This document shows positions 12,385-41,135 of a stretch of 64,000 nucleotides of DNA, piece after piece (the first letter of the stretch is position 1; every line of letters starts with the position of its first letter). The stretch is taken from the IMG/VR virus record IMGVR_UViG_2896003607_000008, positions 2,752 through 66,751 of that record; one strand, given 5' to 3'. The notes below the pieces were generated by a model, which made no database searches, was not told the origin of the DNA, and saw only the letters and a list, made by a program, of their open reading frames with translations. The translations under genes and the position numbers were made by a program. Source of the stretch: a virus (Duplodnaviria > Caudoviricetes).

Positions 12385-12414
12385 TTTCTGCTCACGGCCC
12401 CAAAATTCCGGCCG

Positions 12415-12660: not shown

Positions 12661-12977
12661 TGATCAGAGACCACGGGTTGCCCGTGGTGAGGGGTGGTGA
12701 CTGGTGGCGGCGTTCGGTGCGTCGCTTGGCGGCGCCGTGGCCATGGCCCGGAAACGCGAAACCCGCCGACGGGTTGAACCGCGGCGGGTTAGCGGTGGCG
12801 CAATCGCCGACCGTGCCGCTTGTGAATCACCGATTGAGTCGGCTGTCAAATCGCTCGGGGATCGCAAAGCGTTGACGGATGGTTGCCAAAGGCGGCCGCC
12901 GCTTGCCCGGTTTCACAATCCAGCGATACTCGTTCGGGACACTTCCACAAACCGAATATGCACAGCGCAGGGGAAGC

Positions 12978-13247
12978 ATGGCCGCGAAGAAAGAAACAGC
13001 GATGACTGCAGAGGCCTTCCGAGACTGGCAGGAGGGCTTACGCATTCCGAATCACATGGCCGCAAGGCAACTCGGTGTCTCAACGAACGGCCCGACCAAC
13101 TACCGCCAGAACGGCGCCGGGCGGACCGTTGCTCTCGCCTGCTCCGCGATCGAAGTCGGGCTTGATCCTTGGACGCCAGAGGGGCGCGCCGAAATGCGGG
13201 CGCTACGCCATGTTTTGGAGGCAATCCGGGCGGTGGCCCACAAATGA
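12978..13247 (+). CDS. Small XRE-like HTH protein
   Basis: MTAEAFRDWQ...AARQLGVS...NYRQNG...VALACSA pattern; GGGGA RBS. Confidence 0.7.
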   Translation: MAAKKETAMTAEAFRDWQEGLRIPNHMAARQLGVSTNGPTNYRQNGAGRTVALACSAIEVGLDPWTPEGRAEMRALRHVLEAIRAVAHK

Positions 13248-13279
13248 CACCACTGCAGAACTAACTTTATGGCAGCGCC

Positions 13280-13330
13280 AGCCGCTTCCCGATCCGGGAA
13301 GCGGCGGTAAATCTCAATGAGGTTGGTCAT
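13280..13330 (-). pseudogene. Possible N-terminal stub of an IS1595-family transposase
   Basis: MTNLIEIYRRFPDREAA resembles IS1595 transposase N-termini, but similarity stops before the Zn ribbon. Confidence 0.35.
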
Positions 13331-13333
13331 GGA

Positions 13334-13600
13334 TTACTTGATCGCGATGTAGCGACCATCGACGGTCGGTAGGTAGCTCGTGTCGCCGTTGCGGTCGGCG
13401 AGCTTAAGGGCCTGCGCCTTGGTCAAGGGCTTAACCGCAAGGTTGATTTCGGAATTTTCCGCCACGTATGCGTCCCGCGCCGCGCGGCTCTCGAAAACAA
13501 TCGCCGAAAAGGTGTTGTCGAAGCCGACCGACGTATCGCTGCCATAGGAATTGGTGCGGGCGAAAAACTGCGTCTGCTGGCGGTTCGGGTGGTTGGTCAT
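13334..13600 (-). CDS. Hypothetical protein (MTNHPNR..., 88 aa)
   Basis: GGAGA RBS before the internal ATG; protein-like composition. Confidence 0.7.
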   Translation of the reverse strand: MTNHPNRQQTQFFARTNSYGSDTSVGFDNTFSAIVFESRAARDAYVAENSEINLAVKPLTKAQALKLADRNGDTSYLPTVDGRYIAIK

Positions 13601-13759
13601 TTTCGGTCTCCGCCCCTGATCCCCGAGGCGCGGGCGCCAGCCCTTGCTGACAATCACAACCCTAACAGCTAGCCATATGGGCGCCAAGCCTAAAAGCGTG
13701 CGCCGCCGACCTGATTTGTGATATTTTCGGCGTTTTCTGATTTATTTTGTGTTTTCCGC

Positions 13760-13787
13760 TTGACGCCGCGCCCGGCTTCTGTATGGT
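13760..13787 (+). promoter_or_regulatory. Sigma70-like promoter heading the accessory cluster
   Basis: TTGACG-N16-TATGGT with AT-rich upstream tract; predicted start ~13793-13794. Confidence 0.65.
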
Positions 13788-13832
13788 GCGGACACCGGCC
13801 GAATGTGGCCACCGAATGAGGACCCGGACAAA

Positions 13833-13973
13833 ATGTCCGCAATTCTTTCCCTCTGCATTGAACAGCCGATCCTGCCGGCCACCGTCCTAAGCATGGCCGT
13901 TGGCGTCCTGATTATGTGGTTGGAAGCGCCGGCCACGCCGCGGCGCCACCGTCGGAAGGTCCGCCGCACCTAA
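13833..13973 (+). CDS. 46-aa membrane microprotein with basic tail
   Basis: Manual translation MSAILSLCIEQPILPATVLSMAVGVLIMWLEAPATPRRHRRKVRRT; behind leader repeat 1. Confidence 0.6.
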   Translation: MSAILSLCIEQPILPATVLSMAVGVLIMWLEAPATPRRHRRKVRRT

Positions 13974-14015
13974 CTCCCCGCAACCGGTCAACTGTGACCA
14001 CCGAACGAGGACAAC

Positions 14016-14228
14016 ATGCACAGCAACACAATCAAAGGTCTCATGCTAGACGCCGCTGCGGCGCTGACCTCCGGCCACGCCGCGGCCGCGCATCGCCTGA
14101 TGTGCTCCGCCGACCGCCTGGCCGTAGCCGATCCGAGCATATCGGCCACGCGCCGCGACTTGATCGCTACCGCGCGCGTCGCCGTTGCCTCTGTGATGAA
14201 CTCGAGCCGTTACCATGAACTCGCATAA
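14016..14228 (+). CDS. Hypothetical protein (70 aa)
   Basis: Behind leader repeat 2 with GAGGA RBS. Confidence 0.7.
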   Translation: MHSNTIKGLMLDAAAALTSGHAAAAHRLMCSADRLAVADPSISATRRDLIATARVAVASVMNSSRYHELA

Positions 14229-14421
14229 GATCGCCAAGGGCGCGCCCGTCTCTTACAAATGCGGACACGGGGACCGAGTTAGCGCCATCGTCAAGCGCCG
14301 CCACCGTGACGGCACCGCGACAGTTGAAGCGCGCTTCGTGATGAACCAGGACGGCACGGAACGCGGTTGTTATCTCGGTTTCCGCTATCGGCTGAGCGTT
14401 TCAATTCTGGCAATGCGCTAA
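14215..14421 (+). CDS. Hypothetical protein (68 aa)
   Basis: Overlaps the previous stop; small beta-rich protein. Confidence 0.55.
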   Translation: MNSHKIAKGAPVSYKCGHGDRVSAIVKRRHRDGTATVEARFVMNQDGTERGCYLGFRYRLSVSILAMR

Positions 14422-14515
14422 CTATGAACGCTTCCGCCTTGCGCCGGTTTGGCCGGCGCAATGGGAAGCGCTCCTGCTTCAAACCGCCAACTGTGGCACC
14501 CAATGAGGACAGACT

Positions 14516-15379
14516 ATGCGAATTTACACCGCCACCGCTCGCTTTGACACCGGCCGCCCGCTGACGAATGAGGAACTGTTCAAGGTCGCGCCTTCAATCT
14601 TCGCGACCACGGCGCATCATTCGCGCTCCGATCGTTTCCAGCCGATCCCGACGATTGCCGTACTCGACCAGCTGCGAAAGGAAGGTTTCGAGCCGGTAGG
14701 CGCGAAGCAAGCGATGGCGCGCGAGGGTGACCGCCGCGACTATGCAAAACACCTGATCCGGCTTCGCCGCTTCGATAACGTCAAGGCGTATCAGGTTGGC
14801 GACACGATTTGCGAAATCCTTCTGAAGAACGCGAACGACGGCACGTCCGCTTATGATCTGCTGGCGGGTTTGTTCCGTATCCGGTGCATGAATTCGCTGG
14901 TTTCGCAGGAATCGACCATCGAAACCGTCAAGGTCCGCCATTCCGGTGACGTTGCGAGCAAAGTAATCGAGGGGACCTATTCCGTGCTGAGCGAAGCCCA
15001 GAAGTCGCTTGCCGCACCGGATCAGTGGTCGCGGATTACTTTGACCGAACGCGAACGGGAAGCGTTCGGCGCCTCGGCTCGGCTCCTGCGGTTCGGCGAT
15101 GCCGACGGCAACACTGACACGCCGATCACTCCCGCGCAGATGGTCCGACCGCGCCGCCGCGACGATATGGCGAATGATCTCTGGACGACGTTTAACGTTG
15201 CACAGGAAAACGCAATTCGCGGCGGGCTCCGGGCAATTGGTCGGGATGCTAACAACCGTCCGCGTCGTGTCACCACCCGCGGCGTCAATGGCATCGATCA
15301 AGACGTCAAGTTGAACCGGGCGCTGTTCACCTTGGCGGCCGAAATGGCGAAGCTGAAAGGCGTCCCCCTCGCCGCCTGA
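14516..15379 (+). CDS. DUF932 (DUF945) family protein
   Basis: APSIFA..HHSRSDRFQPIPT, KHLIRLR, LKNANDGTSAY, FRIRCMNSLV, DLWTTFNVAQEN, DVKLNRALF motifs. Confidence 0.9.
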   Translation: MRIYTATARFDTGRPLTNEELFKVAPSIFATTAHHSRSDRFQPIPTIAVLDQLRKEGFEPVGAKQAMAREGDRRDYAKHLIRLRRFDNVKAYQVGDTICEILLKNANDGTSAYDLLAGLFRIRCMNSLVSQESTIETVKVRHSGDVASKVIEGTYSVLSEAQKSLAAPDQWSRITLTEREREAFGASARLLRFGDADGNTDTPITPAQMVRPRRRDDMANDLWTTFNVAQENAIRGGLRAIGRDANNRPRRVTTRGVNGIDQDVKLNRALFTLAAEMAKLKGVPLAA

Positions 15380-15519
15380 TCCGCGGCGGCGCGGCCGAGC
15401 TCTACCGGCGGCGCCGTCTCACCCTCGCGATTGCAGCCCATGCCGCGACGATGTGCGCGGCATGATCGGCAAGCGCCGAACCGGCCAAATGTGGCCACAA
15501 ACCTAGAGGAGCCCGGACA

Positions 15520-15618
15520 ATGTCGACGAAACGCATCCCGATCAAATTCGACCGCAAGCGTATCCGCCGCCAAGTCGAGCGCACCGGCAAACGAGCGTTT
15601 CTGAATTCGTGCCTTTGA
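15520..15618 (+). CDS. 32-aa Arg/Lys-rich microprotein
   Basis: Manual translation MSTKRIPIKFDRKRIRRQVERTGKRAFLNSCL; behind leader repeat 4. Confidence 0.6.
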   Translation: MSTKRIPIKFDRKRIRRQVERTGKRAFLNSCL

Positions 15619-15704
15619 CGTTTCGACACTGCGGCGCGCCGCAGCGCCGCAGCACGAAACGCCACCGCAACCGCGCAACTGTGCGCACCTTAGGAGGAGT
15701 CACC

Positions 15705-16880
15705 ATGCAACCCGTCAACCCGGCATCGGTCCGCGCGGCCAAGGCATCGGACCGCAAGGCGCTGGCGATCATCGCTTACGACACCGCGACCGCCGATCCG
15801 CAGAACGCGAATTGGCGCGCGGTCGCCGATATGCTGCGTCTCGCATTGCCGGCTTCCAGGACTGCTAAGACGGCGGCGCAGGCTGCCGAGCCGAGTCGCT
15901 TTGCGCCGTGGTCGGATTATTCCGTCAACTCGGTTTCATCCAAGCGCCTCGGGAAATCTCCCGTGGTGGTGGTGACATTCGCCGATGGCGAAACGGTCCG
16001 CGCGCCGGCGGTTTCGCTCTCGGGTAAACCGATCAATATCGGTCGAGCGCTCCGCGTCGCTTCGGCGTTCTATCAAGCCCGCATCGCTATCCGCTACGGA
16101 CGGACATCCGACGACTCGCAATGCGTCGACGTTCCCGCGATCGTTTCCGCGGTGTGCGAAACCACGGGCGCCGAATTCGATCCTGCAGAGTGTTCGGCGC
16201 GAACCGCAGAGCTCCGCCGCGGCGCGTTCAACGTCGCCGCAACGCTGGCGGAATTCGACGCCACCGCTGGCGATGGCGCCGACCACCTGCAACGCGAGGC
16301 GCACCTGCAAGCCGCTTACAGGACCGCGCTGCGAGCGCACCGCGCCGCCGGGCTCGGCGACATGGCGCCGACGGAATACACCGACGCGGACCGCGTTGAC
16401 GCCACCGAATGGCTGCAGGATCGGCCGGCAATGGTCGCGGCGATCAAGGCGGCGACGCGCGCCGGCCGCCGATCATTCACCGATGCGGCCATGCGGCTGA
16501 CCTGGGCCGTAATGACGTTCTGGCCGGGCGCGGCGGATTCCGAGCTCGGCGGCGCTGGCCACGGCGCGCCGGCCAGCGATGCGGCGGCGGCTGCCGAGAC
16601 GGAAAGCGCCGCCGTGGCGGATACGGCGCCGCCGGTGGCGCCGCTGGCTGCCGACATGGTTTCGCCCGCGGCTGCCGAGACCCGCGACCACGCGCCGCCG
16701 GAGACGGCTGCAGCAGTTGCCAAGACGGCGCGCAACGATGCCGAGCCGAGCCCAGCCGCACCGCGGGCCCGCGCGGCGCGGTTCAAGATCCCGCCGCGGC
16801 TTCTGGCGACGTCTTGGCTTGCTCCGGTTGACCGGTTGCGACCTTCGGCGCCGCCTTGCGTTCTGCGGGTTGCGGCATAG
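15705..16880 (+). CDS. Hypothetical protein with Ala/Pro-rich C-terminus
   Basis: Start behind leader repeat 5 (GGAGGA); 391 aa. Confidence 0.75.
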   Translation: MQPVNPASVRAAKASDRKALAIIAYDTATADPQNANWRAVADMLRLALPASRTAKTAAQAAEPSRFAPWSDYSVNSVSSKRLGKSPVVVVTFADGETVRAPAVSLSGKPINIGRALRVASAFYQARIAIRYGRTSDDSQCVDVPAIVSAVCETTGAEFDPAECSARTAELRRGAFNVAATLAEFDATAGDGADHLQREAHLQAAYRTALRAHRAAGLGDMAPTEYTDADRVDATEWLQDRPAMVAAIKAATRAGRRSFTDAAMRLTWAVMTFWPGAADSELGGAGHGAPASDAAAAAETESAAVADTAPPVAPLAADMVSPAAAETRDHAPPETAAAVAKTARNDAEPSPAAPRARAARFKIPPRLLATSWLAPVDRLRPSAPPCVLRVAA

Positions 16881-16892
16881 GAGCGGCGCGCC

Positions 16893-17252
16893 ATGAAACG
16901 CAACCCGCCGACCTTTGCCGAGCTCTGCGACGCGGTGGCACGCCGCGCGCCGCCGACCACGCAAACCGAATGGCGCGCCGCTTCACGCGCTATCCGAGAG
17001 GCGCGCCGCGCATCTGGCGGGCGCGTCGGCCGAACTATCATCCTCCCGTGCGGGACGTCGCACCGGTACATCTACGCCGAAGCTTCGTTCGGCGGGATGC
17101 GCTGCTACAACGGGCCCGGCCACCTTGCCGCGGTCGACATGATCGCGCACCACCGCCGCCGCCTGCAGGAAGGCTGCCGAGCCAGCCGGGTTGAATTCGC
17201 CCGACAGTTTGCCGCAGCTGCGCGGCGAGATGGCAGGGTGCCGCTACCATGA
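16893..17252 (+). CDS. Hypothetical protein (119 aa)
   Basis: AGGAG RBS; follows previous gene. Confidence 0.6.
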   Translation: MKRNPPTFAELCDAVARRAPPTTQTEWRAASRAIREARRASGGRVGRTIILPCGTSHRYIYAEASFGGMRCYNGPGHLAAVDMIAHHRRRLQEGCRASRVEFARQFAAAARRDGRVPLP

Positions 17253-17359
17253 AGCAGCGCCGCCAAGCGGTCCGCAAATCGCGCTGCCCGCACTGCCGGC
17301 AACTGCGGCCGTTCTACATGATCGAACGCCACATCACGCAATGCGAGGAGCTGCGCTAA
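17249..17359 (+). CDS. 36-aa C2HC zinc-finger microprotein
   Basis: ATGA overlap; MKQRRQAVRKSRCPHCRQLRPFYMIERHITQCEELR. Confidence 0.5.
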   Translation: MKQRRQAVRKSRCPHCRQLRPFYMIERHITQCEELR

Positions 17360-17446
17360 CCCCCTCGGCTACGGCCGATTCCCCCTCCCGGCTACGTCTG
17401 ATTTTTGAACCGCGCGACTGTGCGCACAATCGAGGAGACCGAGCAG

Positions 17447-17998
17447 ATGCACGCATTTATCAACGTCGAAACCTGCGGCCACATTTACGGGCCTGGCGGC
17501 CGTGGCGAGATCGAGCTCGACCCGGCGGCGAAAATCTGCGGATCAGAAACGATCGTCCACAGCCGCGAGTTGCCCGGCTTTGTCGAGGACCGCGCCAACG
17601 GTAGCGCCGGCGTCACCTATGAGTCGCATCGCTTCTCGGTGCACTTCCTGGCGTTCGCCCGCGGCGGCGCGGCCGTCGGCGATTTCTGTGGCGTGCTGGT
17701 CCGCGTTCACCACGGCGCCGGCTGGGAACTGTGGCGCGGCGACGACATGCTCGCGGATGCGCTGTGGCGCTACGGCGATGATGACCGCGGGCTATTCAAA
17801 CTCTGCTGGTACATGATCGATGCCGCGCGGGCGGCGCGCGGCGGCGGCGCGCACATGGAGGGCGAGAGATACCGCCGCGCGTTCGTTGATGGGCGCCTCC
17901 GCAAGCGCAAGCTCCCGTCGCGCGGCGCTTATCGAGTCTGGATCGACCCAGAACGTCCCGCCCCTACGGCCGATTCCGTTATCCCCGCGTTCGGCTGA
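17447..17998 (+). CDS. Hypothetical protein
   Basis: Behind leader repeat 6; AFVDGRLRKRK C-terminal motif. Confidence 0.75.
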   Translation: MHAFINVETCGHIYGPGGRGEIELDPAAKICGSETIVHSRELPGFVEDRANGSAGVTYESHRFSVHFLAFARGGAAVGDFCGVLVRVHHGAGWELWRGDDMLADALWRYGDDDRGLFKLCWYMIDAARAARGGGAHMEGERYRRAFVDGRLRKRKLPSRGAYRVWIDPERPAPTADSVIPAFG

Positions 17999-18014
17999 TT
18001 TGGAGGATCGAGAA

Positions 18015-18293
18015 ATGAAAGCAATACAGAACGCCAATGGTTTCCGCGTCGGGCAAGCCGTTCGTGTACTTGTGCCGTGCATCGGTGACGACCACGAAGG
18101 GACTGAGCACCACTTGCCGGCCGGTCGCCATGGAACGGTCGAGCAAATCGACGAATACCCATTACCGCAAGGGCTGGCATTCACCGTTTATGTGCCTGTC
18201 GATGGCGAGCGCGGCATAACAAACGTGTTCGATGAGTCCGACGGACACATCCGCGACTTTATCGAGCCTGAGACCGTCGCCGGCAGCAATTGA
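18015..18293 (+). CDS. Small hypothetical protein, SH3/KOW-like pattern
   Basis: GGAGGA RBS; FRVGQAVRV...GRHGTVEQI pattern. Confidence 0.7.
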   Translation: MKAIQNANGFRVGQAVRVLVPCIGDDHEGTEHHLPAGRHGTVEQIDEYPLPQGLAFTVYVPVDGERGITNVFDESDGHIRDFIEPETVAGSN

Positions 18294-18370
18294 ACCGTTG
18301 ACCATCGCAGCATAGCCGCTGCGTATTTTCTCAAAACCGCCAATAGTGGCACCCGATGAGGAGACCAGAA

Positions 18371-19270
18371 ATGTCCGGCACTGCAACCACCGCAAAGCTC
18401 ACACCTTGCCCGAACTGCTCGGAGCCCGTCGACATCGACAGCTTGGACGAGTTCGAATGCACTTACGAGCAGTGGAAGTGCCACGCCTGCGGCTCCTGGA
18501 ACAATCGCAGTGACGGCGCGGAACAGGCCGAGAGGGTGACCGGTCTTGACGATCAGGAGACCGCAATCATTCTCGCCGGGCTCCGCATGATCCAACGCAT
18601 GGGCGTTCAGAATGAGGAGGACGACATCGCCAGCGGAGGCGGCGAGTTCGACCCGCTCGGAGATGATGAAATCGAGGCTCTTTGCGAGCGGCTTTGCCGC
18701 CCAGTTGCGGATATCACGGCGGGTCGGAACGCACTTTCCGTGCTGCGCGCCATTCGTTCCGACAACCCGGAGTTTGAGACCGGCGCCGCCGTCGACCACG
18801 CGGACGTGACGGCACGTCTTGCCAAGCGCTGGCCGGAGATTTGTGCCGAGCTCGACGCCCACCCGGTTGCGCCTTCCCCGGACTGGCGCCGCATCGCCCA
18901 TGAACTCGACGGCGCGCTCGACGCCTGCACCCACCAAATCAGCCAGATGCGCGGCATGTTCGACGATGCCGACGGCACGATTCAGGAAGCTGTCGACGCT
19001 GCCGACGAAGCGGCGGCATCCTATCGCGCCGCCGTCGCCGGCAGCCCCACACCTGTGACGGTGACTATCTGGAGCGTCTACACCGACGGCGACAACCTCA
19101 CGCCTCGCGTGACGCTGCATGCGAGCCGGCCGGATGCCGAGCAACGCGTGCGTGACGTGCTGGACAACGACACTGCCGAGGATGTGGCGGAGCAATGGGC
19201 GGCGGAAACCGACGGCGGCATGTGCTGCATTGAGGAGCACGCATTCCCGCTCCCCCCCGCCGCCATCTGA
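18371..19270 (+). CDS. Acidic multi-domain hypothetical protein with N-terminal Zn ribbon
   Basis: CPNC...CHAC; behind leader repeat 7. Confidence 0.75.
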   Translation: MSGTATTAKLTPCPNCSEPVDIDSLDEFECTYEQWKCHACGSWNNRSDGAEQAERVTGLDDQETAIILAGLRMIQRMGVQNEEDDIASGGGEFDPLGDDEIEALCERLCRPVADITAGRNALSVLRAIRSDNPEFETGAAVDHADVTARLAKRWPEICAELDAHPVAPSPDWRRIAHELDGALDACTHQISQMRGMFDDADGTIQEAVDAADEAAASYRAAVAGSPTPVTVTIWSVYTDGDNLTPRVTLHASRPDAEQRVRDVLDNDTAEDVAEQWAAETDGGMCCIEEHAFPLPPAAI

Positions 19271-19306
19271 TTCCCCCGACTACGGCTAATTTCGGAGACA
19301 GAAATC

Positions 19307-19819
19307 ATGACCCAGGAACATGATCCGGCCGACCGCGAGACCTGCAGTTACTGCGGCATCGCCGAAGATATCCATCTTCTAGACGGCGTTCTCGATGCCG
19401 ACGGGAACGACACAGGGAAACTCGCATGTATCGCTTGTTACCCAGTCCCGGACACCTGGGAGCCGTGCGGTGTTGAGCATATCGAGATCAGCATCGCACC
19501 GTCTCTAATGCCTCGTTATGCTGCATGGAACCATCTTCGGCTGCTTCGCAAACACGCTTACAAACTATCTTCCGTCGTCTTGAGAAGTGCTATCGAAACA
19601 CTCGATAGCTTGACCTATTACGACAAAGATCAGAATTCACACATCCTGGCGTCGCCAAGGTACATGAAGGCGCTTCGCAAAGCTCGCCGGCAATCGGGGC
19701 GACTGCGGGCCGCGATCCTCGGAAATTCTGACGCCATCACCGAGGCGCTGCGCAAATACGAAGCCCCGCTTCTTGACGCGGCGTCCCTGTTCGAGGATGG
19801 CGCGGCACTGAACTACTGA
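19307..19819 (+). CDS. Hypothetical protein with CxxC...CxxC motif
   Basis: CSYC, CIAC; GGAGA RBS. Confidence 0.65.
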   Translation: MTQEHDPADRETCSYCGIAEDIHLLDGVLDADGNDTGKLACIACYPVPDTWEPCGVEHIEISIAPSLMPRYAAWNHLRLLRKHAYKLSSVVLRSAIETLDSLTYYDKDQNSHILASPRYMKALRKARRQSGRLRAAILGNSDAITEALRKYEAPLLDAASLFEDGAALNY

Positions 19820-19872
19820 ACTACTGAACTGCAACCGCGCGATTGTGCGCACCGCATGAGGAGCCCAGACAA

Positions 19873-22308
19873 ATGACTATGACCGCAACCTATTCGCCCG
19901 ATGACAACAAGCTGCGCCTGTACGCTTCGCGGCGACTTGACGCCGAGACCTTTGCACGCGTGAAAGCCGCTGGCTTCAAGTACGCACCGAAACAGGACCT
20001 TTTTGTTGCGCCGTGCTGGTCGCCGGAACGCGAGGATTTGCTCCTCGAGCTCTGCGGAGAGATCGGCGACGAGGATACATCGCTGGCCGACCGCGCCGAG
20101 CAACGCGCCGACCGCTTCGAGATTTACGGCGAGAAGCGCCTAGCCGAAGCGGAGGCGGCGCGCGAAGCCGTGGCGGAAATTGCAGACGGAATCCCGCTTG
20201 GCCAGCCGATCCTGGTCGGCCACCACTCCGAACGTCACGCCCGCCGCGACGCGGAGCGGATCGAGTCGGGCATGCGTCGCGCGGTGAAGCTGTGGCGCAC
20301 ATCGGAATACTGGGCGCGGCGCGCGGCGGGCGCGATCCGTCACGCCAAATACAAGGAACTGCCGGCGGTGCGTCACCGGCGGATCAAGGGTATCGAGGCG
20401 GACCGCCGCAAGGTGGAGCGCAGCAAAGCCGAGTCCGAAAAGTGGCTGAAGCTCTGGGCGGCTGCCAGTGCAGAAACCGACCCGCCGCGCCAACTCGCGT
20501 TTGCTAGGAAGCTCGCAAACGTCGGTTACATGACGCTGCCGAAGAAGGAAGGCGACCGCGAGGACATGCCGAACGGCCCGAGCGCGTGGACGGCACTCAG
20601 TGACGAACCGTCGCCGGGTGTTTTCGCGCCGCGGACCGTCGCCGAGGTGATTGCGTACGCGTTGAGCATCTATCCGCGATCGATCGAGCGCGCCGCCCGT
20701 TGGTTGGAGCACTATGACAACCGCCTGGTCTATGAGCGCGCCATGCTCGCCGAGCAGATCGGCGGCGGCGATGAAGGCGCGGCGGCGACAATGGGCGACC
20801 GATTTCCGTTCACCGTCGGCGGCAAGGTGCAAGTGTCGCGCAGCCACGCCCGCAGCGAGTGGCTGACCATCCTGCGCGTCAACCGCACCGGCGGGACGGT
20901 CAACAGCATCACCACCGAGGCGCCGGCCGGCGTGCATTGGCAGAAGACTTGGAAATTCAGCGTTGAAGAGGTGACGGCCTACGAGGCGCCCAGCGCCGCC
21001 GCGGTCGAGCAGGCGAAGGAAGCGGCGAAGCTGCCGCCGCTCTGCAACTATCCCGGTGACGGCTTCGTGCACATGACGAAGGACGAATACGAAAAGGTGC
21101 CGAAGTCATACCGCGGCTATCGCGAGCTGCGAAAGCTGCCCGACGGGCTCGGCCGGCATCGCACACGTGTTGCGATCGGCGCCTATGCGTTCCGCGGCAA
21201 GTGCGAAGACAACAAGCGGCATAGCTACTTCCCCGTCTTCATCACCGACGCTAAGCGCGTTGACCCTCCCGCGGCGCCGGCGCCGACCGAGCCGACCACA
21301 CCGGCGGAATTCGTCGCCGAGATCGTCGCGCCTCCGAGCGCGGCGAAGGCGGAACGCGCCGCCTCGCCGGAGATCGACGCCGCAGCGGGTGAGAGCCCCG
21401 CCGAAGCGACAACCGGCGCCACCCCCTCGGCTGCGCCTTCCTGTGCCGCCGAAGCGCAGCGCGTGCTGGGATCCGCTCAGGACGAAGCGGAGCGGGCCGG
21501 CGCCGAGATCATCATGGGCCTTGGCCAATATCGTGTCGGCCGCGGCGCGGTCGTTACTGGCTGGCACGACGCTGCCGCGGATGCCTGGCGCGAGTTCTGC
21601 GACCTTGCAGGCCTTGCGTTCTCCGAAGATCTGACACCACCGGCGCGGCCGCGCGCCGCCCCCGCGGCTACGGCTGATTCTGCAGCCCCCTCGCGCGCGG
21701 CTGATTTCGAAGCAATGGCGGCGGCGATCCGTTCCGGCCAAGCGGTGCAGGTGGTGGCGGCGCCGCAGTTGTTCGCGACGCCGCGCGACCTTGCTGCGGA
21801 GGTGGTCGAACTCGCCGAGCTGGAGACCGGGCACCGCGTCCTAGAGCCATCCGCCGGCACCGGCGCGCTGGTCTGGCCTGCAATTGAGCGTGGTGCCCGC
21901 GTGACCACCGTCGAGATTAACGAGGTTCTATCCAAAGGGCTCGGCTGCAGCCAACGGATCGAGCACGGCGTCACCTTGGATTTCCTTACTCTTCGGCCGT
22001 CCGAAGAATGGTTATTCGACCGCGTGTTGATGAATCCACCCTTCGAGAACGGCGCCGATATCAAACACATCGAGCACGCGCTGCGCTTCCTGAAACCCGG
22101 CGGTCGTCTGGTCGCGATCTGCGCGAATGGTCCGCGCCAACGCGCCCGGCTTATGCCGATCGCCTCGACGTGGCGCGACCTTCCGCCGGGCTCGTTCAAG
22201 TCGTCGGGCACCATGGTGAACGCCGCGCTGCTGGTGATCGAGGCTCCGAATGCACCCGCGGCTACGGCCGATTCCGCCGGGCCCGTCGCCTCAGCCGGCG
22301 CGGAATAG
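19873..22308 (+). CDS. DUF3560-domain protein fused to a C-terminal amino (N6A-type) methyltransferase
   Basis: ATYSPDDNKLRLY, IPLGQPILVGHHSERHAR (DUF3560); VLEPSAGTG and VLMNPPF MTase motifs; behind leader repeat 8. Confidence 0.9.
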   Translation: MTMTATYSPDDNKLRLYASRRLDAETFARVKAAGFKYAPKQDLFVAPCWSPEREDLLLELCGEIGDEDTSLADRAEQRADRFEIYGEKRLAEAEAAREAVAEIADGIPLGQPILVGHHSERHARRDAERIESGMRRAVKLWRTSEYWARRAAGAIRHAKYKELPAVRHRRIKGIEADRRKVERSKAESEKWLKLWAAASAETDPPRQLAFARKLANVGYMTLPKKEGDREDMPNGPSAWTALSDEPSPGVFAPRTVAEVIAYALSIYPRSIERAARWLEHYDNRLVYERAMLAEQIGGGDEGAAATMGDRFPFTVGGKVQVSRSHARSEWLTILRVNRTGGTVNSITTEAPAGVHWQKTWKFSVEEVTAYEAPSAAAVEQAKEAAKLPPLCNYPGDGFVHMTKDEYEKVPKSYRGYRELRKLPDGLGRHRTRVAIGAYAFRGKCEDNKRHSYFPVFITDAKRVDPPAAPAPTEPTTPAEFVAEIVAPPSAAKAERAASPEIDAAAGESPAEATTGATPSAAPSCAAEAQRVLGSAQDEAERAGAEIIMGLGQYRVGRGAVVTGWHDAAADAWREFCDLAGLAFSEDLTPPARPRAAPAATADSAAPSRAADFEAMAAAIRSGQAVQVVAAPQLFATPRDLAAEVVELAELETGHRVLEPSAGTGALVWPAIERGARVTTVEINEVLSKGLGCSQRIEHGVTLDFLTLRPSEEWLFDRVLMNPPFENGADIKHIEHALRFLKPGGRLVAICANGPRQRARLMPIASTWRDLPPGSFKSSGTMVNAALLVIEAPNAPAATADSAGPVASAGAE

Positions 22309-22371
22309 CCCCCCTCGCCTACGATTGATTCCCCTATCCCCGGCTGCGGCCGATTTGAGAGGAAACGAACG

Positions 22372-22743
22372 ATGCCAATGATTGAACTAGCCACTGAGGA
22401 GAAAGACCTGCTGCGGCGGCTCGCCGCGAGCAAGGTGGAGGACAGCGACACAACGGCCGAGCGCCTGGTGGTGAATTGCGGGCTGGCACGCCGCGTCGAC
22501 CCCGGCATGCTGGAAATCACCGAGGCAGGCCGACTGGCGGCGCGCACCGGCAAGGTCGAACGTCACCCGTTCCACTACGACGTGTTCTGCGACCTCTCAG
22601 CCCGCATCGAAGACGTCGCCAAGTCGCGTGATCCGCGGCTTGAGAGTGCTGTTCGCCGGAAGCTTGAGGAAGCGGCCCATGCGATCTGGGAGGCGTGGAA
22701 TCTTCAATCCGAACTTGAGCGGGCTGCTGGCCTACGCGCGTGA
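22372..22743 (+). CDS. Hypothetical protein (possible wHTH-like N-terminus)
   Basis: GAGAGGA RBS; LEITEAGRLA motif. Confidence 0.65.
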   Translation: MPMIELATEEKDLLRRLAASKVEDSDTTAERLVVNCGLARRVDPGMLEITEAGRLAARTGKVERHPFHYDVFCDLSARIEDVAKSRDPRLESAVRRKLEEAAHAIWEAWNLQSELERAAGLRA

Positions 22744-22790
22744 CCAAGACCTGAACCCGGCAACTGTGCCGACCGAGAGAGGAGCACGAC

Positions 22791-23240
22791 ATGATCCACC
22801 GAACCCTTGAAATTTCAACTCGCCACCTGTCGCCGAACGCGAAGGCCTGGCTGTCCGCGTGCACGATGATCGCGCCGATCTCTCGCGCCGCAACCACCGT
22901 CTTGGCGGCGACTGGCGCCGGCTGGCTTGTCCAGGTGCTCGGGCAGCCTTGTCGCGCTGTGGCGCGTCTGCAGGTCCTGCTGGAGCGTCGTGAAATGCTG
23001 CTCCGAACTCCCGGGCTCGGCCGGCACGGCGCCGAGCTGGTCAAACGCTTCGATCGCGCTATCGACGACACCGTGACCACGCCGCCAGAAGGCATGCCGA
23101 CCGACCTCTGGAGGTGCTTGGCGCGCGCCGCCGCCGAGGACTGCAGACTGGTGCTGTTCGACGACGAGGCGCCTACCCTCGACTGGCCGGAGATCCCAGA
23201 CGCAGGCGACGCGCTGCGCCGCTGCGAGGCGGCGTCGTGA
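22791..23240 (+). CDS. DUF5983-like protein
   Basis: LEISTRHL...GWLV...PTDLWRCL..A...CRLVLFDDEAP pattern; behind leader repeat 9. Confidence 0.6.
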   Translation: MIHRTLEISTRHLSPNAKAWLSACTMIAPISRAATTVLAATGAGWLVQVLGQPCRAVARLQVLLERREMLLRTPGLGRHGAELVKRFDRAIDDTVTTPPEGMPTDLWRCLARAAAEDCRLVLFDDEAPTLDWPEIPDAGDALRRCEAAS

Positions 23241-23806
23241 GCCGCGAGGTTCGGCGCGTGCCGGCGACTTGGGCGCATCCTCGGGACCGGCAAGGCCGCT
23301 TCATCCCGCTGCGCGGCGGAAACTACGCCGCTGCGGCGGCCGCCTGGGACGAAGGCGCAGCCCAGTGGGATGCCGGCATGGTGGCAACCAACGACAGCCG
23401 CCCGGGCGCGCCGGCGTGGCGCCCTCGCGATGGCTTCACGGTCTCGCGCAGCTACGAAGACTTTGCTGGGATGCGTCCGGTCGCGGCGACCTTCATGCCG
23501 AACTGGCCGCCGGAGGAAAGGACGCATTGGCAGATGTACGAGACCTCGAGCCACGGCACCCCGCTCTCTCCGCCTTTGCCGTCCGCCGCCGAGCTCGCCT
23601 CCTGGCTGGCCGACCACCACGCAAGCATAGGCCCCGGTTTGACGGCTTCGGCCACTGAATGGCTGAAGCTGATCGAGCAAGGCCGCGGCACGACCTTCAG
23701 CTTCGACGAACGCGCGAACCCGGTCTCGCTTCTGGCCCCACCCCCGGACTACGGCCGATTTCCCAGGATTCGCCGGCTCATTCGCCGTTGGACCGGCCGA
23801 CGATAG
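23237..23806 (+). CDS. Conserved phage hypothetical protein (SREVRRVP..W.HP type)
   Basis: GTGA overlap; MPNWP.EERTHWQMYET.S.GTPLSP motif. Confidence 0.7.
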   Translation: MSREVRRVPATWAHPRDRQGRFIPLRGGNYAAAAAAWDEGAAQWDAGMVATNDSRPGAPAWRPRDGFTVSRSYEDFAGMRPVAATFMPNWPPEERTHWQMYETSSHGTPLSPPLPSAAELASWLADHHASIGPGLTASATEWLKLIEQGRGTTFSFDERANPVSLLAPPPDYGRFPRIRRLIRRWTGRR

Positions 23807-23896
23807 CCGCCCCCCACGGCTACGGCCGATTTCCCATGAACAGATTCGAGCCGCGGTCTTCCACAGGCCGCATGGCAGAGCTTGCGGAGGATGGAT

Positions 23897-24430
23897 ATGC
23901 TAAACCTAGAGACGAGGACTGCTGAAGTGTCACTAAAACCGATATGCGACCTCAACGTCGCCAAGCGCTATATCGCCCAGGCGGTGCCGCTTGGTGAGGA
24001 TCCTTGCCAGTTCAACGCGATCTGGGCAGCCCCCGGGCAAGTCCCCAATTTCGTCTATGAGGGCGACGATCCCGAGGTCTTCTCGACCGCCGATGACGCC
24101 GAAGCAAAGGCTCGCAAGGTTCTTTTCGAGGCTCTCAACGCCCGCCGGCCGGCAAGGCAAGCCTATGTTCCGAACCAGCCTGGCCTGCGCCGCGCGGTGA
24201 AATTCCTGAAGATGACCGGCGAGGAGTTCGCGGTCGCCCAAGCTGCGGCCGATCTGACCGACGCTGAGATTGCCTTTGCATGGGGGACGACCCCCGATCG
24301 GGTGGTCCGCTGGAAATCTGGCGCGGACGCAGTGCCCTTTGCGATGCACTGGGTGCTTCCGCTCCTGAAGGACGAGAAAAACTACGAGTTCGTGCTCGAC
24401 GTGGCTGAACAGAAGACCGTCGACAAATAG
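23897..24430 (+). CDS. Protein with C-terminal XRE-like HTH
   Basis: MTGEEF...LTDAEIAFAWGTTPDRVVRWKSG..VP; GGAGG RBS. Confidence 0.7.
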   Translation: MLNLETRTAEVSLKPICDLNVAKRYIAQAVPLGEDPCQFNAIWAAPGQVPNFVYEGDDPEVFSTADDAEAKARKVLFEALNARRPARQAYVPNQPGLRRAVKFLKMTGEEFAVAQAAADLTDAEIAFAWGTTPDRVVRWKSGADAVPFAMHWVLPLLKDEKNYEFVLDVAEQKTVDK

Positions 24431-24443
24431 GCGGAGGTTCGCA

Positions 24444-24857
24444 ATGGCAAGCGGCTTGGGCATGGATCATGGGGCGATGACGAGCCAACCCGTCCGCATG
24501 GTCGGCCGCGTCGCGATCCGGCCCGGACCGATCGCCATCCTCACCGAGCGCGGAACCATCAGAACGCGGCGCCGGGTGCCGAGCGCCACCCCGAAATATC
24601 CGATCAGCTCGCCGGGTGCCTGGATCGCGGACGGACACCGCACGGCCTATGTGCGCTGCACCTGGTGTGGACATGAGGTGAGCAGCCTGAGGCTTGACCA
24701 GCTCCCGCCGGATTGGCCGTGGCGGCGCGTGTGCCGAGCGATGCTTTGCACCGAATGCGGAACGCCGGGGTGCGTCCACGTCGTGCCGAACTGGCACGAC
24801 AACAAGCTCCATAAAACGCCGTTCACCTCGGCCTGGCGAGCGGACCCGCCAGCATGA
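24444..24857 (+). CDS. Hypothetical Zn-ribbon protein
   Basis: CTWC and CTECG motifs, VVPNW. Confidence 0.55.
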   Translation: MASGLGMDHGAMTSQPVRMVGRVAIRPGPIAILTERGTIRTRRRVPSATPKYPISSPGAWIADGHRTAYVRCTWCGHEVSSLRLDQLPPDWPWRRVCRAMLCTECGTPGCVHVVPNWHDNKLHKTPFTSAWRADPPA

Positions 24858-24901
24858 AGATCATCTCGACGACAGACCGCCACGCGCGGCCGGTGTGAGC
24901 G

Positions 24902-25165
24902 GTGTCCTGGACGCTGCGCTTTGATCCGCCGATTCCGCTACCCGATGGCGGCGAGATCGCCACGCTGCGCGAGGCCGGCGACTACATCGCCGCCCTGCCG
25001 CCGGCCGAGCAGCGCCACCCGGAGGTGCAGGTCGCCATCCATGTCCTGCTCCAGGCGGCTGACCACGGCGGGCCGATGATCTTTGCCCGCATGGGCGTCC
25101 TGCGAATGCTGGCGCGCCACGATCCACCGCCGACACCACGGCCGGCACGGCGCCGCCGCTGGTAG
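24902..25165 (+). CDS. Conserved rhizobial hypothetical protein
   Basis: W..RFDPPIPLPDG..IATLREAG.YI..LP...GGPMIFARMG pattern. Confidence 0.65.
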   Translation: MSWTLRFDPPIPLPDGGEIATLREAGDYIAALPPAEQRHPEVQVAIHVLLQAADHGGPMIFARMGVLRMLARHDPPPTPRPARRRRW

Positions 25166-25226
25166 CCGCGGCGCTTACCGCCGCCGCAATCACGTCTCAC
25201 CGGCGGGGCGCCGCCGACATATGTGG

Positions 25227-25583
25227 CTAGGTCGCGCCGCCGCCAGAGCTGCGGTCCATCCTGGCAGCGCGGGCTTCAATGCCCTTCTTGACGTTGTGGG
25301 CAGCGCATTTGCATGCGCCATTGCTTAGGTCGAACCTGAGTTCCGGACGGTCTTTCACCTCGAGGATGTGATCAGCGTACATCCTGTCGCCGCGCGCCCG
25401 GCTCCGTTCGCACCGATGGCCGTTTTCAACGTGCTCGCACCGCCATCCGGCCCGGCTCTTCACCTCGAACGCCCATGTTTTGTGTGCGGTTGACCCATAG
25501 TCGCTGTCTGCCGTCTTCGGTAGCGGCTTGGCCTTCCGCGCATCAAGCACAGCGACTCGAGAGCCGAGCATCTTCACCATCAT
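25227..25583 (-). CDS. HNH endonuclease (terminase-associated type)
   Basis: YGS..HK.W...VKSRAGWRCE, YADHILEVKD, SNGACKC..HN. Confidence 0.85.
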   Translation of the reverse strand: MMVKMLGSRVAVLDARKAKPLPKTADSDYGSTAHKTWAFEVKSRAGWRCEHVENGHRCERSRARGDRMYADHILEVKDRPELRFDLSNGACKCAAHNVKKGIEARAARMDRSSGGGAT

Positions 25584-26825: not shown

Positions 26826-26920
26826 CGTTCCCTCACGCGCGAGATCCCAGCAGAACGAGTAGGACGGCCGGCGTTGGTTGTCACTAAAGCAACCCTTTCA
26901 GAAGGCCCTCCGTCAACGCC

Positions 26921-41097: not shown

Positions 41098-41135
41098 TTC
41101 GACACCTGACGCATCAACCAACAGGTGCTTTCGAG

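Follow-up and report, generated by a model that had tools for sequence, protein, structure and literature searches.

The locus described here raises the question of why the packaging genes of a temperate phage are split by a long run of genes facing the other way. In the window, that is, the whole 64,000-nucleotide (nt) stretch of DNA that was analyzed, 12.8 kb lies between terS (11824-12384, − strand) and an HNH endonuclease gene (25227-25655, − strand). The ORF count for this interval was 18 on the + strand and one on the − strand (13334-13600), in line with the about 20 mostly opposite-strand genes described in the initial annotation, whose start coordinate for the block, 12978, is the exact ATG of the first + strand gene. 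The GC content of the block is 0.653, against 0.61-0.62 in the rest of the phage. TerL (10097-11824, − strand) was recognized by Pfam (PF03354, 1.9e-12; PF20441, 2.6e-8) and by phrog_9 (9.6e-114), and the ORF directly upstream of it, which starts with the ATG at 12384 and encodes 186 aa, is terS, called by its position. It matched phrog_12540 (function unnamed) at 7.3e-16, a family also touched by the bona fide terS of L008, and gave a weak HTH_38 match in the Pfam search; homologues with 39-63% identity occupy the equivalent place in relatives, and their starts align with its ATG. The HNH gene is the last of a − strand replication/early operon and was identified by phrog_589 (1.9e-8) and phrog_144 (1.5e-6). 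No match was obtained for it in Pfam, nor by tblastn in 50,697 phage records, and its homologues in relatives, 52-63% identical, are again found at the equivalent place. The convergent junction between block and HNH gene (25166-25226) measures 61 nt and contains a partial GC hairpin.

HNH and terS had been taken to be neighbors normally, and this was true of all five outgroups examined (Bcep176, phiBt-TXDOH, L003, L004 and L008), where HNH lies 84-216 nt from terS or overlaps it. The split architecture of the window was found in six other genomes (L058, L059, L066, L024, L023 and L002), the first three being prophages in Bradyrhizobium genomes, and the terS-HNH distance was 10.9-11.2 kb in the four relatives with a locus that reaches from one gene to the other. 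The packaging genes of this temperate phage family, whose hosts are Bradyrhizobium-type bacteria, are separated by a conserved block of 11-13 kb on the opposite strand. The comparison of cassette content with related prophages, which the initial annotation had proposed as a check, gave a common backbone in the seven blocks, with 7 of the 17 window genes compared being private. The order of this backbone, HTH - DUF932 - b8 - (acidic b11) - DUF3560-methyltransferase - b14 - b16, is kept even across phages whose TerL proteins are only 56% identical. The comparison supports a conserved module and not a private insertion.

The first gene, b2 (12978-13247, + strand; 89 aa), is present in 6 of the 7 blocks with 44-48% identity. 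Its protein appears HTH-like when read by eye, and the searches returned phrog_6962 at 5.4e-4 only and no Pfam match; b2 could regulate the block, a caveat to the earlier failure to find a CI-type operator. In relatives, b2 is followed by a hairpin plus a T-run. The sole − strand gene, b3m (88 aa), has a good RBS and is an orphan with no homologue in the relatives. All further genes are on the + strand, beginning with b4 (13833-13973; 46 aa), a singleton with a weak LapA_dom match that is hydrophobic then basic and probably a small membrane protein, and with b5 (14016-14228; 70 aa) and b6 (14215-14421; 68 aa), both orphans according to the ORF list and the block comparison. The DUF932, or YubP-type, protein (14516-15379; 287 aa; PF06067 7.5e-37, 127.7 bits; phrog_12094 2.7e-105) is encoded in 6 of the 7 blocks; its AF2 model (pLDDT 79) showed no significant fold match in the PDB, the best Foldseek E being 0.064 and the best VIA Z of 7.0 lying within the background range. 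A basic ORF of 32 aa follows at 15520-15618. The product of b8 (15705-16880; 391 aa), found in 6 of the 7 blocks, is conserved in its N-terminal part and ends in a tail rich in Ala and Pro, and the family searches gave no match to it. It is followed by b9 (16893-17252; 119 aa; pI 11.4), a basic protein with tblastn matches in L058, L024 and L066, and by b10 (17447-17998; 183 aa), an orphan in the block comparison. The 299-aa protein of b11 (18371-19270; 4 of 7 blocks), with an N-terminal Cys4 motif, is very acidic (pI 4.2, net charge −36) and, judged from its sequence, is a candidate DNA mimic; a search of 5.8 billion clusters gave only 14 homologues, from Rhodopseudomonas and Bradyrhizobium, and its structure model (pLDDT 56) is too poor to use. 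Cys motifs are also found in b12 (19307-19819; 170 aa), by sequence and block comparison. The largest protein (19873-22308; 811 aa; 6 of 7 blocks) combines DUF3560 (PF12083, 3.5e-35) with a C-terminal amino-methyltransferase (MTase) part matching phrog_9133 (1.9e-35), phrog_15406 (7.8e-29) and the PADLOC mad2 MTase model (1.7e-16), in which the motifs LEPSAGTG and NPPF can be read. After b14 (22372-22743; 123 aa; 4 of 7 blocks) come the DUF5983 protein (22791-23240; 149 aa; PF19419 8e-14), present in only 2 of the 7 blocks with a counterpart in L023 (5.4e-21), and b16 (23237-23806; 189 aa; 5 of 7 blocks), whose start overlaps the DUF5983 stop and whose nearest Atlas clusters are viral hypothetical proteins. 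The block comparison classed the last three, b17 (23891-24430), the zinc-ribbon-like b18 (24444-24857) and b19 (24902-25165), as orphans, and orphans make up the majority of the block proteins.

The recognizable families were then considered together. The initial annotation had regarded them as typical of leading regions, and all three Pfam-recognizable block proteins are indeed listed in Supplementary Table 1 of Samuel et al. 2024 (PMC11541004), which gives the plasmid families enriched in leading regions: YubP/PF06067 is family 3, which has 4661 members and lies on the transcribable strand at a median gene position of 1 counted from oriT; a DUF3560/methyltransferase family with 1913 members is number 28, and a DUF5983 family with 618 members (FDR p 6.6e-199) is number 72. 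The DUF932, DUF3560 and DUF5983 families are thus common to the block and to the leading regions of conjugative plasmids. In an unrelated family of 42-44 kb phages, at least seven independent contigs (L027, L030-L033, L040 and L042) have DUF932 as their first gene, at a distance of 389-515 nt from a contig end. Family searches found no known anti-restriction, anti-CRISPR, SSB or PsiB family in the window block or among the 71 ORFs of the six relatives' blocks, which yielded only five DUF3560-MTases, one DUF5983 and one sub-threshold MazE. When the block proteins were compared with 5027 defense models, the MTase domain alone matched; the defense-like genes of this phage are located elsewhere, at 42.5-60.7 kb.

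The block has its own near-consensus sigma70 promoter (13760-13787, + strand), TTGACG-N16-TATGGT with a T-rich upstream tract. The consensus match alone is unremarkable, since four such sites occurred in the region versus 1.9 ± 1.6 in shuffles. A sigma70-like promoter had been predicted earlier, and its sequence and place were conserved in all five relatives inspected (L058, L059, L066, L024 and L023), as TTGAC(A/G)-N16/17-TATGGT or a near variant; in all six genomes, window included, the first hairpin described below begins 8-12 nt after the −10 hexamer. Genes expressed from a prophage would fit equally well with a strong promoter that is not repressed.

A covarying RNA hairpin of 4-5 bp before nine block genes is newly described here. 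These B hairpins were first detected as plain direct repeats in nine copies, all on the + strand: B1 (13797-13810; 46.8 bits), which starts 10 nt after the −10 hexamer and so at about the 5′ end of the transcript, B2 (13986-13999; 41.6 bits), B3 (14486-14497; 36.1 bits), B4 (15483-15496; 37.3 bits), which precedes the 32-aa ORF, B5 (15673-15686; 40.6 bits), B6 (17412-17425; 41.0 bits), B7 (18339-18350; 38.0 bits), B8 (19837-19850; 43.4 bits) and B9 (22758-22771; 42.4 bits). In 9 of 9 an ATG lies 16-23 nt downstream. Across 14 copies, 95.7% of the cells were paired and 13 cells carried double changes; none of 500 shuffles reached this, and slid controls collapsed. Because the folding energies were no better than those of shuffles (z from −1.6 to +0.7), the structure is deduced solely from this covariation. 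In 893 kb, 68 of the 70 covariance-model matches at E ≤ 1, which include the model's own 14 training copies, fell inside blocks, all on the block strand, and the 64-kb window gave no such match outside the block. The hairpin is also block-specific at the scale of whole host genomes, since the three that were scanned (8.4-9.5 Mb each) gave 17 matches at E ≤ 0.01, of which 16 were in the prophage block. The block contains a second, UACG-loop family of hairpins (A-type) on the + strand: two before B6 (17366-17403; CGGC-UACG-GCCG and a variant), one before b12 (19277-19291), one directly before the SD of b14 (22341-22355) and two before b17 (23746-23831), and in-frame copies of the motif at the C-terminus of b10 (17961-17975), in the linker before the MTase domain of the 811-aa protein (21665-21679) and at the C-terminus of that protein (22259-22273).

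The position of cos determines when the block would enter the cell. Between terS and the block lies a non-coding, GC-rich, structured stretch of 590 nt (12385-12977), a candidate for cos and for late-operon control, in which no ORF has homologues in the relatives. The aligned terS-block intergenic regions of six genomes (590-1200 nt) share conserved islands. One of them, with invariant columns just upstream of terS (12395-12450, − strand), holds CTCACGCGCA (12429-12438) and CGCTCGGGGT (12439-12448). The cohesive-end 10-mer given in the Bcep176 record itself, about 50 nt upstream of its terS, sits at the place equivalent to this island, and one 10-mer at that place is common to the window and the Bcep176 cos. 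By local alignment the likeness was not significant (score 20 versus 18.9 ± 2.3 in shuffles), and a 9-mer of this comparison occurred twice in the window versus about three times expected. A conserved hairpin, ACCCGCCG...CGGCGGGT, followed by a T-rich run on the − strand (12757-12789), adjoins the invariant TGAGTCGGCTGTCAAATCG (12843-12861), which contains TTGACA on the − strand; together they may form a late promoter plus attenuator. TerL is of the type found in cos phages, and the phiBt-TXDOH record's own note puts the joined cohesive ends inside terS. A search for reads that could map the virion termini gave only two contig-level runs, each with 7% of the words, and no usable reads. The initial annotation had taken a cos at about 12.5 kb as its premise, and the long conserved non-coding DNA on the terS side, with none on the HNH side, agrees with this; the 590-nt stretch is the most likely site.

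HNH proteins work with terminase at cos, and the weak statistical likeness to the Bcep176 cos also leaves room for an ordinary early/establishment operon with cos on the HNH side, or with headful packaging, so that the block would be packaged first and enter last. Near HNH, at 26826-26840, a stretch of 15 nt does match part of the Bcep176 cos core exactly (score 31, shuffle maximum 28), but this match is oriented the other way and falls on the RBS of the following gene. Moreover, the HNH side consists of tightly packed variable ORFs: the window has only its 61-nt junction, and in relatives this junction is unconserved and occupied by extra variable − strand ORFs. Given also the type of TerL and the ends recorded for Bcep176 and phiBt-TXDOH, this arrangement is improbable. 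For the hairpins, recognition by a regulator (a translational repressor or activator, e.g., one of the block's zinc-ribbon proteins) or by an endoribonuclease was considered. All 14 copies have the same A and G in the loop, the same C-G pair beside the loop-closing pair and the same CC and AC flanks, whereas the other stem positions vary, as expected for a sequence-specific binder, and the distance of 16-23 nt from hairpin end to ATG puts the hairpins at the margin of the ribosome footprint. RNase III, however, needs stems longer than these 4-5 bp. We regard such recognition as quite improbable, and it is compatible with an establishment role of the block, not opposed to it.

An accessory (moron-type) cluster beside cos, expressed constitutively in the lysogen to serve the host or to exclude other elements, would account for the near-consensus host promoter, insulated by the terminator-like hairpin after b2, as well as for the mosaic content, the higher GC and the fact that the close relatives are all integrated prophages. 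Accessory and defense hotspots are known beside cos in P2-like phages, which supports the same idea. Nevertheless, the recognizable families are those of plasmid entry regions and not of defense islands, the MTase domain is the only defense-model match, the defense-like genes lie elsewhere, and typical morons do not keep a backbone order over such TerL divergence; we therefore consider this rather unlikely. The opposite orientation, different GC and plasmid-type families could also mean that an independent mobile element, be it a satellite, an ICE or a fragment of a plasmid, was inserted between HNH and terS. In family searches, none of the block genes was an integrase, transposase, relaxase or replication gene, and a repeat search found no flanking direct repeats. 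The insertion point and backbone are the same in seven genomes with diverged terminases; any capture must therefore be ancient and the block is now part of the phage, which makes a mobile element highly improbable.

Taken as a whole, the initial interpretation is partly supported, and we give about an even chance to the reading that the block is a self-contained operon of HK97/Bcep176-type temperate Nitrobacteraceae cos phages, serving establishment and counter-defense as the first DNA in. The block would lie between cos and the HNH gene, oriented opposite to all its neighbors. In lambda, the terminase end is the first in and the last out; by analogy, with cos beside terS, the block would be packaged last and ejected first. 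The strong host-type promoter would then fire inward as the DNA enters, early in infection, and one transcript would yield about 16 genes, with the short hairpins possibly acting on the RNA as portable 5′ stabilizers or translation insulators for each cistron. By analogy with plasmid leading regions, the block is probably an establishment or counter-defense operon; in a new host, the orphan MTase may, for example, methylate the phage's own DNA, and b11 may possibly act as a DNA mimic.

The element is a tailed phage, with genes for TerL, portal, S49 protease and an HK97-type capsid. The source record is a single record of 66,751 bp, which is regarded as a genome fragment because it has no terminal repeat and both of its ends lie inside genes. 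Read from left to right, the left arm carries on the minus strand the HK97-type capsid, the S49 protease, the portal, TerL (10097-11824) and terS (11824-12384). A second minus strand arm, from 25227 to approximately 40.9 kb, carries HNH, a DUF6456-like gene, DnaB, primase, a C5 methyltransferase, a beta-clamp, an MT-A70 methyltransferase and small genes, and is followed by a CI-type HTH gene (41088-41585, plus strand) and then a long plus strand arm. TerL was assigned to phrog_9 at 9.6e-114 with terS directly upstream, which places it in the clade of the HK97/Bcep176-type cos module. Its identity to Bcep176, phiBt-TXDOH, Xanthomonas DMF5-T1 and similar cos phages was 54-57%, and all 753 phage records matched by TerL stayed below 60% identity.

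The block under study (12978-25165) lies between terS and the HNH gene (25227-25655, minus strand). The initial annotation had described these two genes as usual neighbours that are here widely separated by genes almost all on the opposite strand, and each part of this description held. The distance from the HNH stop to the terS start is 12,842 nt, and the interval contains 18 plus strand ORFs and one minus strand ORF, the former all directed away from the candidate cos. In the outgroup set, which consists of the five phages or loci with DNA upstream of terS visible (Bcep176, phiBt-TXDOH, L003, L004 with a 216-nt gap and L008 with an 84-nt gap), HNH adjoins terS in all five, either 84-216 nt apart or overlapping. 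In L008, an antiterminator is located just before the gap. The packaging region resembles HK97/Bcep176-type modules in that HNH ends the preceding operon and a conserved site is found just upstream of terS, and differs from the canonical HNH-cos-terS-TerL order in that HNH is displaced from terS by 12.8 kb of opposite-strand genes.

G+C content was 0.653 at 13800-25165, compared with 0.621 in the structural arm, 0.609 in the replication arm and 0.622 in the right arm. The window encodes four proteins of DNA-methyltransferase type, namely the DUF3560-methyltransferase of the block (19873-22308), the C5 methyltransferase (30984-32780), the MT-A70 protein (35278-35943) and a Dam-like protein (56121-56873), and four such genes in one phage are a heavy investment against restriction. 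The beta clamp of DNA polymerase III (32777-34123, minus strand) has an N-terminal extension of about 75 aa; its gene and the C5 methyltransferase gene upstream, both minus strand, overlap by 4 nt at the stop of the latter. Several defence-like genes lie on the plus strand arm after the CI-like gene, at 42550-60684: an LmuB/SMC-like ATPase (42550-43917), a DUF5131 gene that matches PDC-M41B/M30B (46705-47751), an NYN nuclease (48164-48766), a RecD-like helicase that matches PDC-M16A (48990-50108) and a HerA-like ATPase (58957-60684), all plus strand. This arm may be a prophage-borne defence island.

Relatives were gathered from viral and genome collections with TerL and DUF932 as queries, and the window proteins were then mapped onto the loci. 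A common layout was observed, consisting of terS on the minus strand, then HTH, DUF932 and the DUF3560-methyltransferase in this order among other plus strand genes, and finally HNH and DUF6456 on the minus strand, either whole or as far as the locus reaches. It is present in the prophages of Bradyrhizobium sp. Ai1a-2 (L058, the same site as L017), Leo170 (L059, also L050 and L001) and C9 (L066, also L026), and further in L024, L023 and L002, the last two of which stop short of HNH. In the four relatives whose locus includes both ends, the terS-HNH interval is 10.9-11.2 kb. The loci are embedded in bacterial contigs of 83-480 kb, indicating that the phages are temperate.

When the block ORFs were clustered across seven genomes (the window and six relatives), the order of the backbone was constant. 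The HTH-like gene b2 (12978-13247), DUF932 and b8 (15705-16880) were each present in six of the seven, b16 (23237-23806) in five, and b11 (18371-19270) and b14 (22372-22743) in four; the methyltransferase was present in six, the locus of L023 ending early. The variable cassette content that the initial annotation proposed to look for in related prophages was also found, since seven of 17 window genes are private and interspersed in the backbone. L066 and L024 carry the block with a TerL only 56% identical to that of the window. The kept layout and backbone in relatives, together with outgroups that have no block, show that the block is neither a chance arrangement nor a recent private insertion. 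Neither megablast of the block nor tblastn of HNH against phage records gave a match. In Mesorhizobium sp. LSJC280B00 (L067/L028, 8770-10950), three matches to the leader hairpin described below flank a DUF932 gene. Within 10 kb, the terS, TerL, portal and capsid of the window were unmatched and the S49 protease gave no more than a weak match, indicating that the hairpin-plus-DUF932 unit exists in a different neighbourhood as well.

The position of cos was approached comparatively, as the two metagenome runs that matched (word share 0.07 for each) were contig-level, and contigs do not reveal the ends of molecules. The interval from terS to the first block gene measures 590 nt in the window and reaches about 1200 nt in relatives; it contains conserved islands and no conserved ORFs. 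One island lies just upstream of terS (12395-12450), and another is a conserved hairpin whose tail is T-rich (12757-12789). A 19-mer at 12843-12861 is invariant and has TTGACA on the minus strand, about 60 nt before the hairpin. The candidate cos region itself contains a perfect 12-nt inverted repeat, GGGAAGTTGCCC at 12470-12481 and GGGCAACTTCCC at 12644-12655. Together, the 19-mer and the hairpin possibly form a late promoter and its attenuator. On the other side, the junction between the block and HNH is only 61 nt in the window and is taken up in relatives by variable minus strand ORFs that overlap the HNH stop with their starts, leaving no room for a conserved site.

The two ends of the Bcep176 record carry an identical 10-mer, which is the pattern of a cohesive end written twice; it is located 120 nt after HNH and about 50 nt before the ATG of terS. 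The DMF5-T1 record begins at the equivalent position, and the annotation of phiBt-TXDOH puts the joined cohesive ends inside terS. The 10-mer next after the cohesive end of Bcep176 recurs in the window at an equivalent distance from terS, a weak likeness: local alignment of the window with the Bcep176 cos did not rise above shuffles, and the 9-mer of the likeness occurs in the window as often as expected by chance. An exact 15-nt match to the Bcep176 cos core at 26826-26840 (plus strand; score 31 against a shuffle maximum of 28) is probably due to chance, as it overlaps the RBS in the 5′ leader of the DUF6456-like gene and its orientation is opposite to that of terS. The contig ends of the distant TerL relatives L006, L009 and L010 were uninformative because coding sequence reaches them. 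The combined comparative evidence favours a putative cos next to terS, the ends being most plausibly at or beside 12439-12448. In lambda, the terminase end is packaged first and the other end is ejected first. With cos beside terS, the same rule would make the block the first DNA to enter the cell, and it would be transcribed along the direction of entry.

The three recognizable families of the block, of which the initial annotation had named DUF932 and the DUF3560-methyltransferase, all gave solid Pfam matches. DUF932 (PF06067; 14516-15379) matched at 7.5e-37 with 127.7 bits against a cut-off of 23, covering profile positions 1-226 of 227. DUF3560 (PF12083), in the 811-aa protein encoded at 19873-22308, matched at 3.5e-35 with 121.2 bits against a cut-off of 27.2, and DUF5983 (22791-23240) at 8e-14. 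The translation of the DUF3560-methyltransferase contains LEPSAGTG and NPPF, which we take to be the SAM-binding motif I and the catalytic (D/N)PP(Y/F) motif IV of amino (N6-A/N4-C) methyltransferases. Its methyltransferase domain scored 20.3 bits with Pfam MTS, under the cut-off of 23, and matched the PADLOC mad2 methyltransferase at 1.7e-16 and PHROG DNA methyltransferase families at 7.8e-29 and 9.7e-25. The other block proteins had no match in Pfam, NCBIfam or PADLOC, and PHROGs added among them only a weak match of b2 to phrog_6962, a family of unknown function (5.4e-4). We found no ardA, klcA/ardB, psiB, ssb or acr in the block of the window with Pfam, NCBIfam and PHROGs, and none in 71 ORFs of the six relatives with Pfam. 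The protein b11 is very acidic, with a net charge of -36, and is a candidate DNA mimic.

Structure prediction, which had been suggested for the block ORFs, was of no help. The DUF932 model was fair (pLDDT 79.4), and Foldseek against PDB gave no match at E≤0.001. In a wide VIA comparison its best Z was 7.0, to alpha+beta folds of T3SS-chaperone, FP-domain and TnsE-C-like type, which is inside the background range, as were PsiB (Z 4.3) and AcrIIA11 (Z 4.6), and in BFVD the model matched only other DUF932/DUF945/TIGR03299 proteins. The b11 model (pLDDT 56) was too poor for a fold search, and the ESM Atlas gave no usable lead for b8 or b16. A literature search found no function assigned to DUF932 or its synonyms, and the text of Iyer et al. 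2017 does not name them.

The sigma70-like promoter at 13760-13787, predicted in the initial annotation, is kept in position and sequence in all five relatives inspected. In six of six genomes the predicted promoter reads TTGAC(A/G)-N16/17-TATGGT or nearly so and has a T-rich tract upstream. A hairpin plus T-run, which ends the transcript of the HTH gene, lies before it in the relatives. Downstream, nine hairpin leaders (motif B) were found as plain direct repeats (families D5, D8, D14 and D20), all on the plus strand and each with an ATG 16-23 nt downstream. The motif consists of aaCC, a stem of 4-5 bp around a loop A-N-N-G, AC, 5-7 nt, GAGGAG, 5-9 nt and ATG. With its start 8-12 nt past the -10 hexamer, the first copy lies at the 5′ end of the predicted transcript.

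Across 14 copies taken from three genomes, stem pairing was 95.7% and 13 cells showed double changes; no shuffle out of 500 reached this, and every slid register collapsed. The loop is closed by A-U in some copies and by G-U in others, a pattern that fits RNA of the block strand only. A covariance model gave 70 matches at E≤1 in the 893 kb of the window and loci, 14 of them being its training copies, and 68 of the 70 were in blocks (window, L023, L058, L059, L066, L024, L002 and L067/L028), always on the block strand; the model found none elsewhere in the window. In three whole host genomes, where 150 of about 1500 first-look candidates were scored per genome, 16 of 17 matches at E≤0.01 fell within the prophage block. 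Rfam has no family for these hairpins, the search of 14 kb on both strands at E≤1 returning one irrelevant match (bxd_2 lncRNA, E 0.066). Folding energies of the hairpin regions were no better than those of shuffles, as expected with such short stems. Three other identities of the hairpins were rejected: N4-type hairpin promoters, because there is no gene for a giant virion RNA polymerase (the largest ORF of the window is 821 aa) and nine promoters in one operon are implausible; RNase III sites, for which such stems lack the length; and a palindromic operator, because the arms covary with G-U pairs on one strand only.

A second hairpin family with a UACG loop (motif A; C-rich, CGGC-UACG-GCCG, AUU) has 16 copies in the window at ≤3 mismatches, compared with 3.25 ± 1.74 expected. 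Nine of them are in the block on the plus strand, and exact copies occur in the blocks of relatives. The motif precedes the SD of b10 (17447-17998), b12 (19307-19819), b14 and b17 (23891-24430). It also occurs in frame, encoding ...ATADS..., at 21665-21679 in the linker before the methyltransferase domain, at 22259-22273 at the methyltransferase C-terminus and at 17961-17975 at the b10 C-terminus, which suggests a trace of gene fusion or exchange at the motif.

The block resembles the T7 class I early and T5 first-step-transfer regions, which lie at the first-entering end, are transcribed inward by the host RNA polymerase and serve take-over and anti-restriction, in that its predicted promoter is host-type, conserved and near the candidate genome end. 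Unlike these virulent phages with terminal repeats, it belongs to a temperate cos genome of siphophage type, encodes unrelated proteins, and its order of entry is inferred. The separation of the early cistrons by RNA processing structures in T7 is a further likeness; the hairpins here are shorter than RNase III would need. Cluster K mycobacteriophages reportedly have conserved SAS/ESAS motifs of unknown function directly upstream of the starts of a subset of non-structural genes. The present motif is similarly conserved upstream of start codons in one phage group and differs in being a covarying hairpin restricted to one operon, with unrelated sequence and a host of another phylum. In the PeSL cassettes of T4-type phages, which the titles of PMC2839356 and PMC4122927 present as composite promoter-terminator motifs, a short repeated stem-loop regulatory motif likewise flanks variable small genes in a plastic region. 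The block motif may double as a recombination joint, as the in-frame copies at the linker and C-termini hint. Unlike PeSL so described, where each repeat has its own early promoter and stem-loop, only the first block hairpin follows a promoter and the other eight are inside the operon, directly before Shine-Dalgarno sequences.

The view that the block families are typical of plasmid leading regions agrees with Supplementary Table 1 of Samuel et al. 2024 (PMC11541004), which lists the 100 largest leading-region-enriched families and contains all three recognizable ones, the block proteins being linked to them by family name, without alignment to the table representatives. Family 3 (YubP/UPF0380/YafZ-like/'PF06067 domain') has 4661 members at a median gene position of 1 from oriT on the transcribable strand, family 28 ('DUF3560; Methyltransferase domain protein') has 1913 members and family 72 ('DUF5983') 618, with an FDR p of 6.6e-199, and orphan methyltransferases form one main functional group (PMC11541004). 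The block thus shares YubP/DUF932, DUF3560-methyltransferase and DUF5983 with the leading regions tabulated there, and an orphan methyltransferase is present. As in plasmid and ICE leading regions, its small genes are co-oriented and lie at the putative first-entering end, with an HTH regulator near the start and G+C above the rest of the element, plasmid leading regions being GC-rich according to PMC13478746. In the plasmid literature consulted, we found no account of repeated leader hairpins. Unlike leading regions, the block belongs to a tailed phage with double-stranded DNA entry via the tail, so single-stranded DNA promoters are not expected; it has no ardA, klcA, psiB or ssb, and no oriT or relaxase that would transfer it first as a single strand. 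Relaxase and T4SS families were absent by Pfam from the 72 window ORFs scanned.

DUF932 is also the first gene in a separate, unrelated phage family of 42-44 kb (L031, L032, L040, L042, L027, L030, L033 and others; records G001-G005), for which CheckV gave 99-100% completeness in four of five records checked. It lies 389-515 nt from the contig end in at least seven independent contigs. Some ten small genes, a phrog_2-type TerL and structural genes come after it on the same strand; it is thus co-oriented with TerL, which is of another type than that of the window. G005 has a 127-bp terminal repeat, with DUF932 3 kb in. The terminal position of DUF932 is therefore not peculiar to one lineage.

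Other explanations of the block were weighed against early entry. A prophage-expressed accessory cluster would agree with the promoter of its own and the mosaic content, but the backbone is conserved, the families are those of plasmid entry and no defence model matched in the block apart from that of the methyltransferase domain, and we consider this reading unlikely. The position of the block would have no meaning for entry if cos were on the HNH side or packaging were headful; we see a small chance of this, the comparative evidence pointing to the terS side. That the block is an independent mobile insertion is highly improbable, as it has neither mobility genes nor boundaries and occupies the same site in diverged phages. 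As for the hairpins, their invariant loop and flank bases would suit a binding or cleavage site for a regulator, to which we give a slim chance.

Under the reading that we prefer, a first-entering block, the host RNA polymerase would start at the conserved promoter once the block DNA is in the cell and would make one long transcript of about 16 cistrons. The leader hairpins would shield 5′ ends and keep each Shine-Dalgarno free in a message of 65% GC, so that cassettes would work wherever they land. The block products would prepare the host: the orphan amino-methyltransferase (LEPSAGTG, NPPF) would protect the phage DNA, the very acidic b11 may mimic DNA, DUF932 would play whatever part it has as the first gene of plasmid leading regions, and the HTH protein b2 may shut the block promoter down later.

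The arrangement reported in the initial annotation is real and wider than the window, and its interpretation, in which termini, timing and function are inferred steps, is reasonable. The block would be a new form of a known first-entry strategy, and it comes with a new small RNA motif. Counter-defence genes on first-entering DNA are established for T7, T5 and conjugative plasmids, and our literature search found no such account for temperate cos phages, and no paper that places DUF932 or DUF3560 in the entry region of a phage or describes a gene block that splits HNH from terS. DUF932/YubP is the first gene behind oriT in plasmids and, judged from sequence, would be the first large gene behind the candidate cos here. 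We tentatively raise the possibility that conjugative plasmids and a temperate cos phage lineage share one DUF932/YubP-led 'first-in' establishment tool-kit, the phage version having a portable RNA leader hairpin that lets cassettes swap while expression is kept. If this is true, DUF932, the DUF3560-methyltransferase, b8, b16 and the acidic b11 would be unrecognized counter-defence or establishment factors acting on double- and single-stranded incoming DNA. Should the first-entry reading hold, about ten of the conserved orphans could be ranked for screening against defence systems, and the commonest uncharacterized leading-region families, YubP/DUF932 and DUF3560, would gain a second, genetically tractable setting with measurable entry polarity. 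Being compact, covarying and specific to one operon, the leader hairpin is an RNA element whose action as an expression insulator is directly testable.
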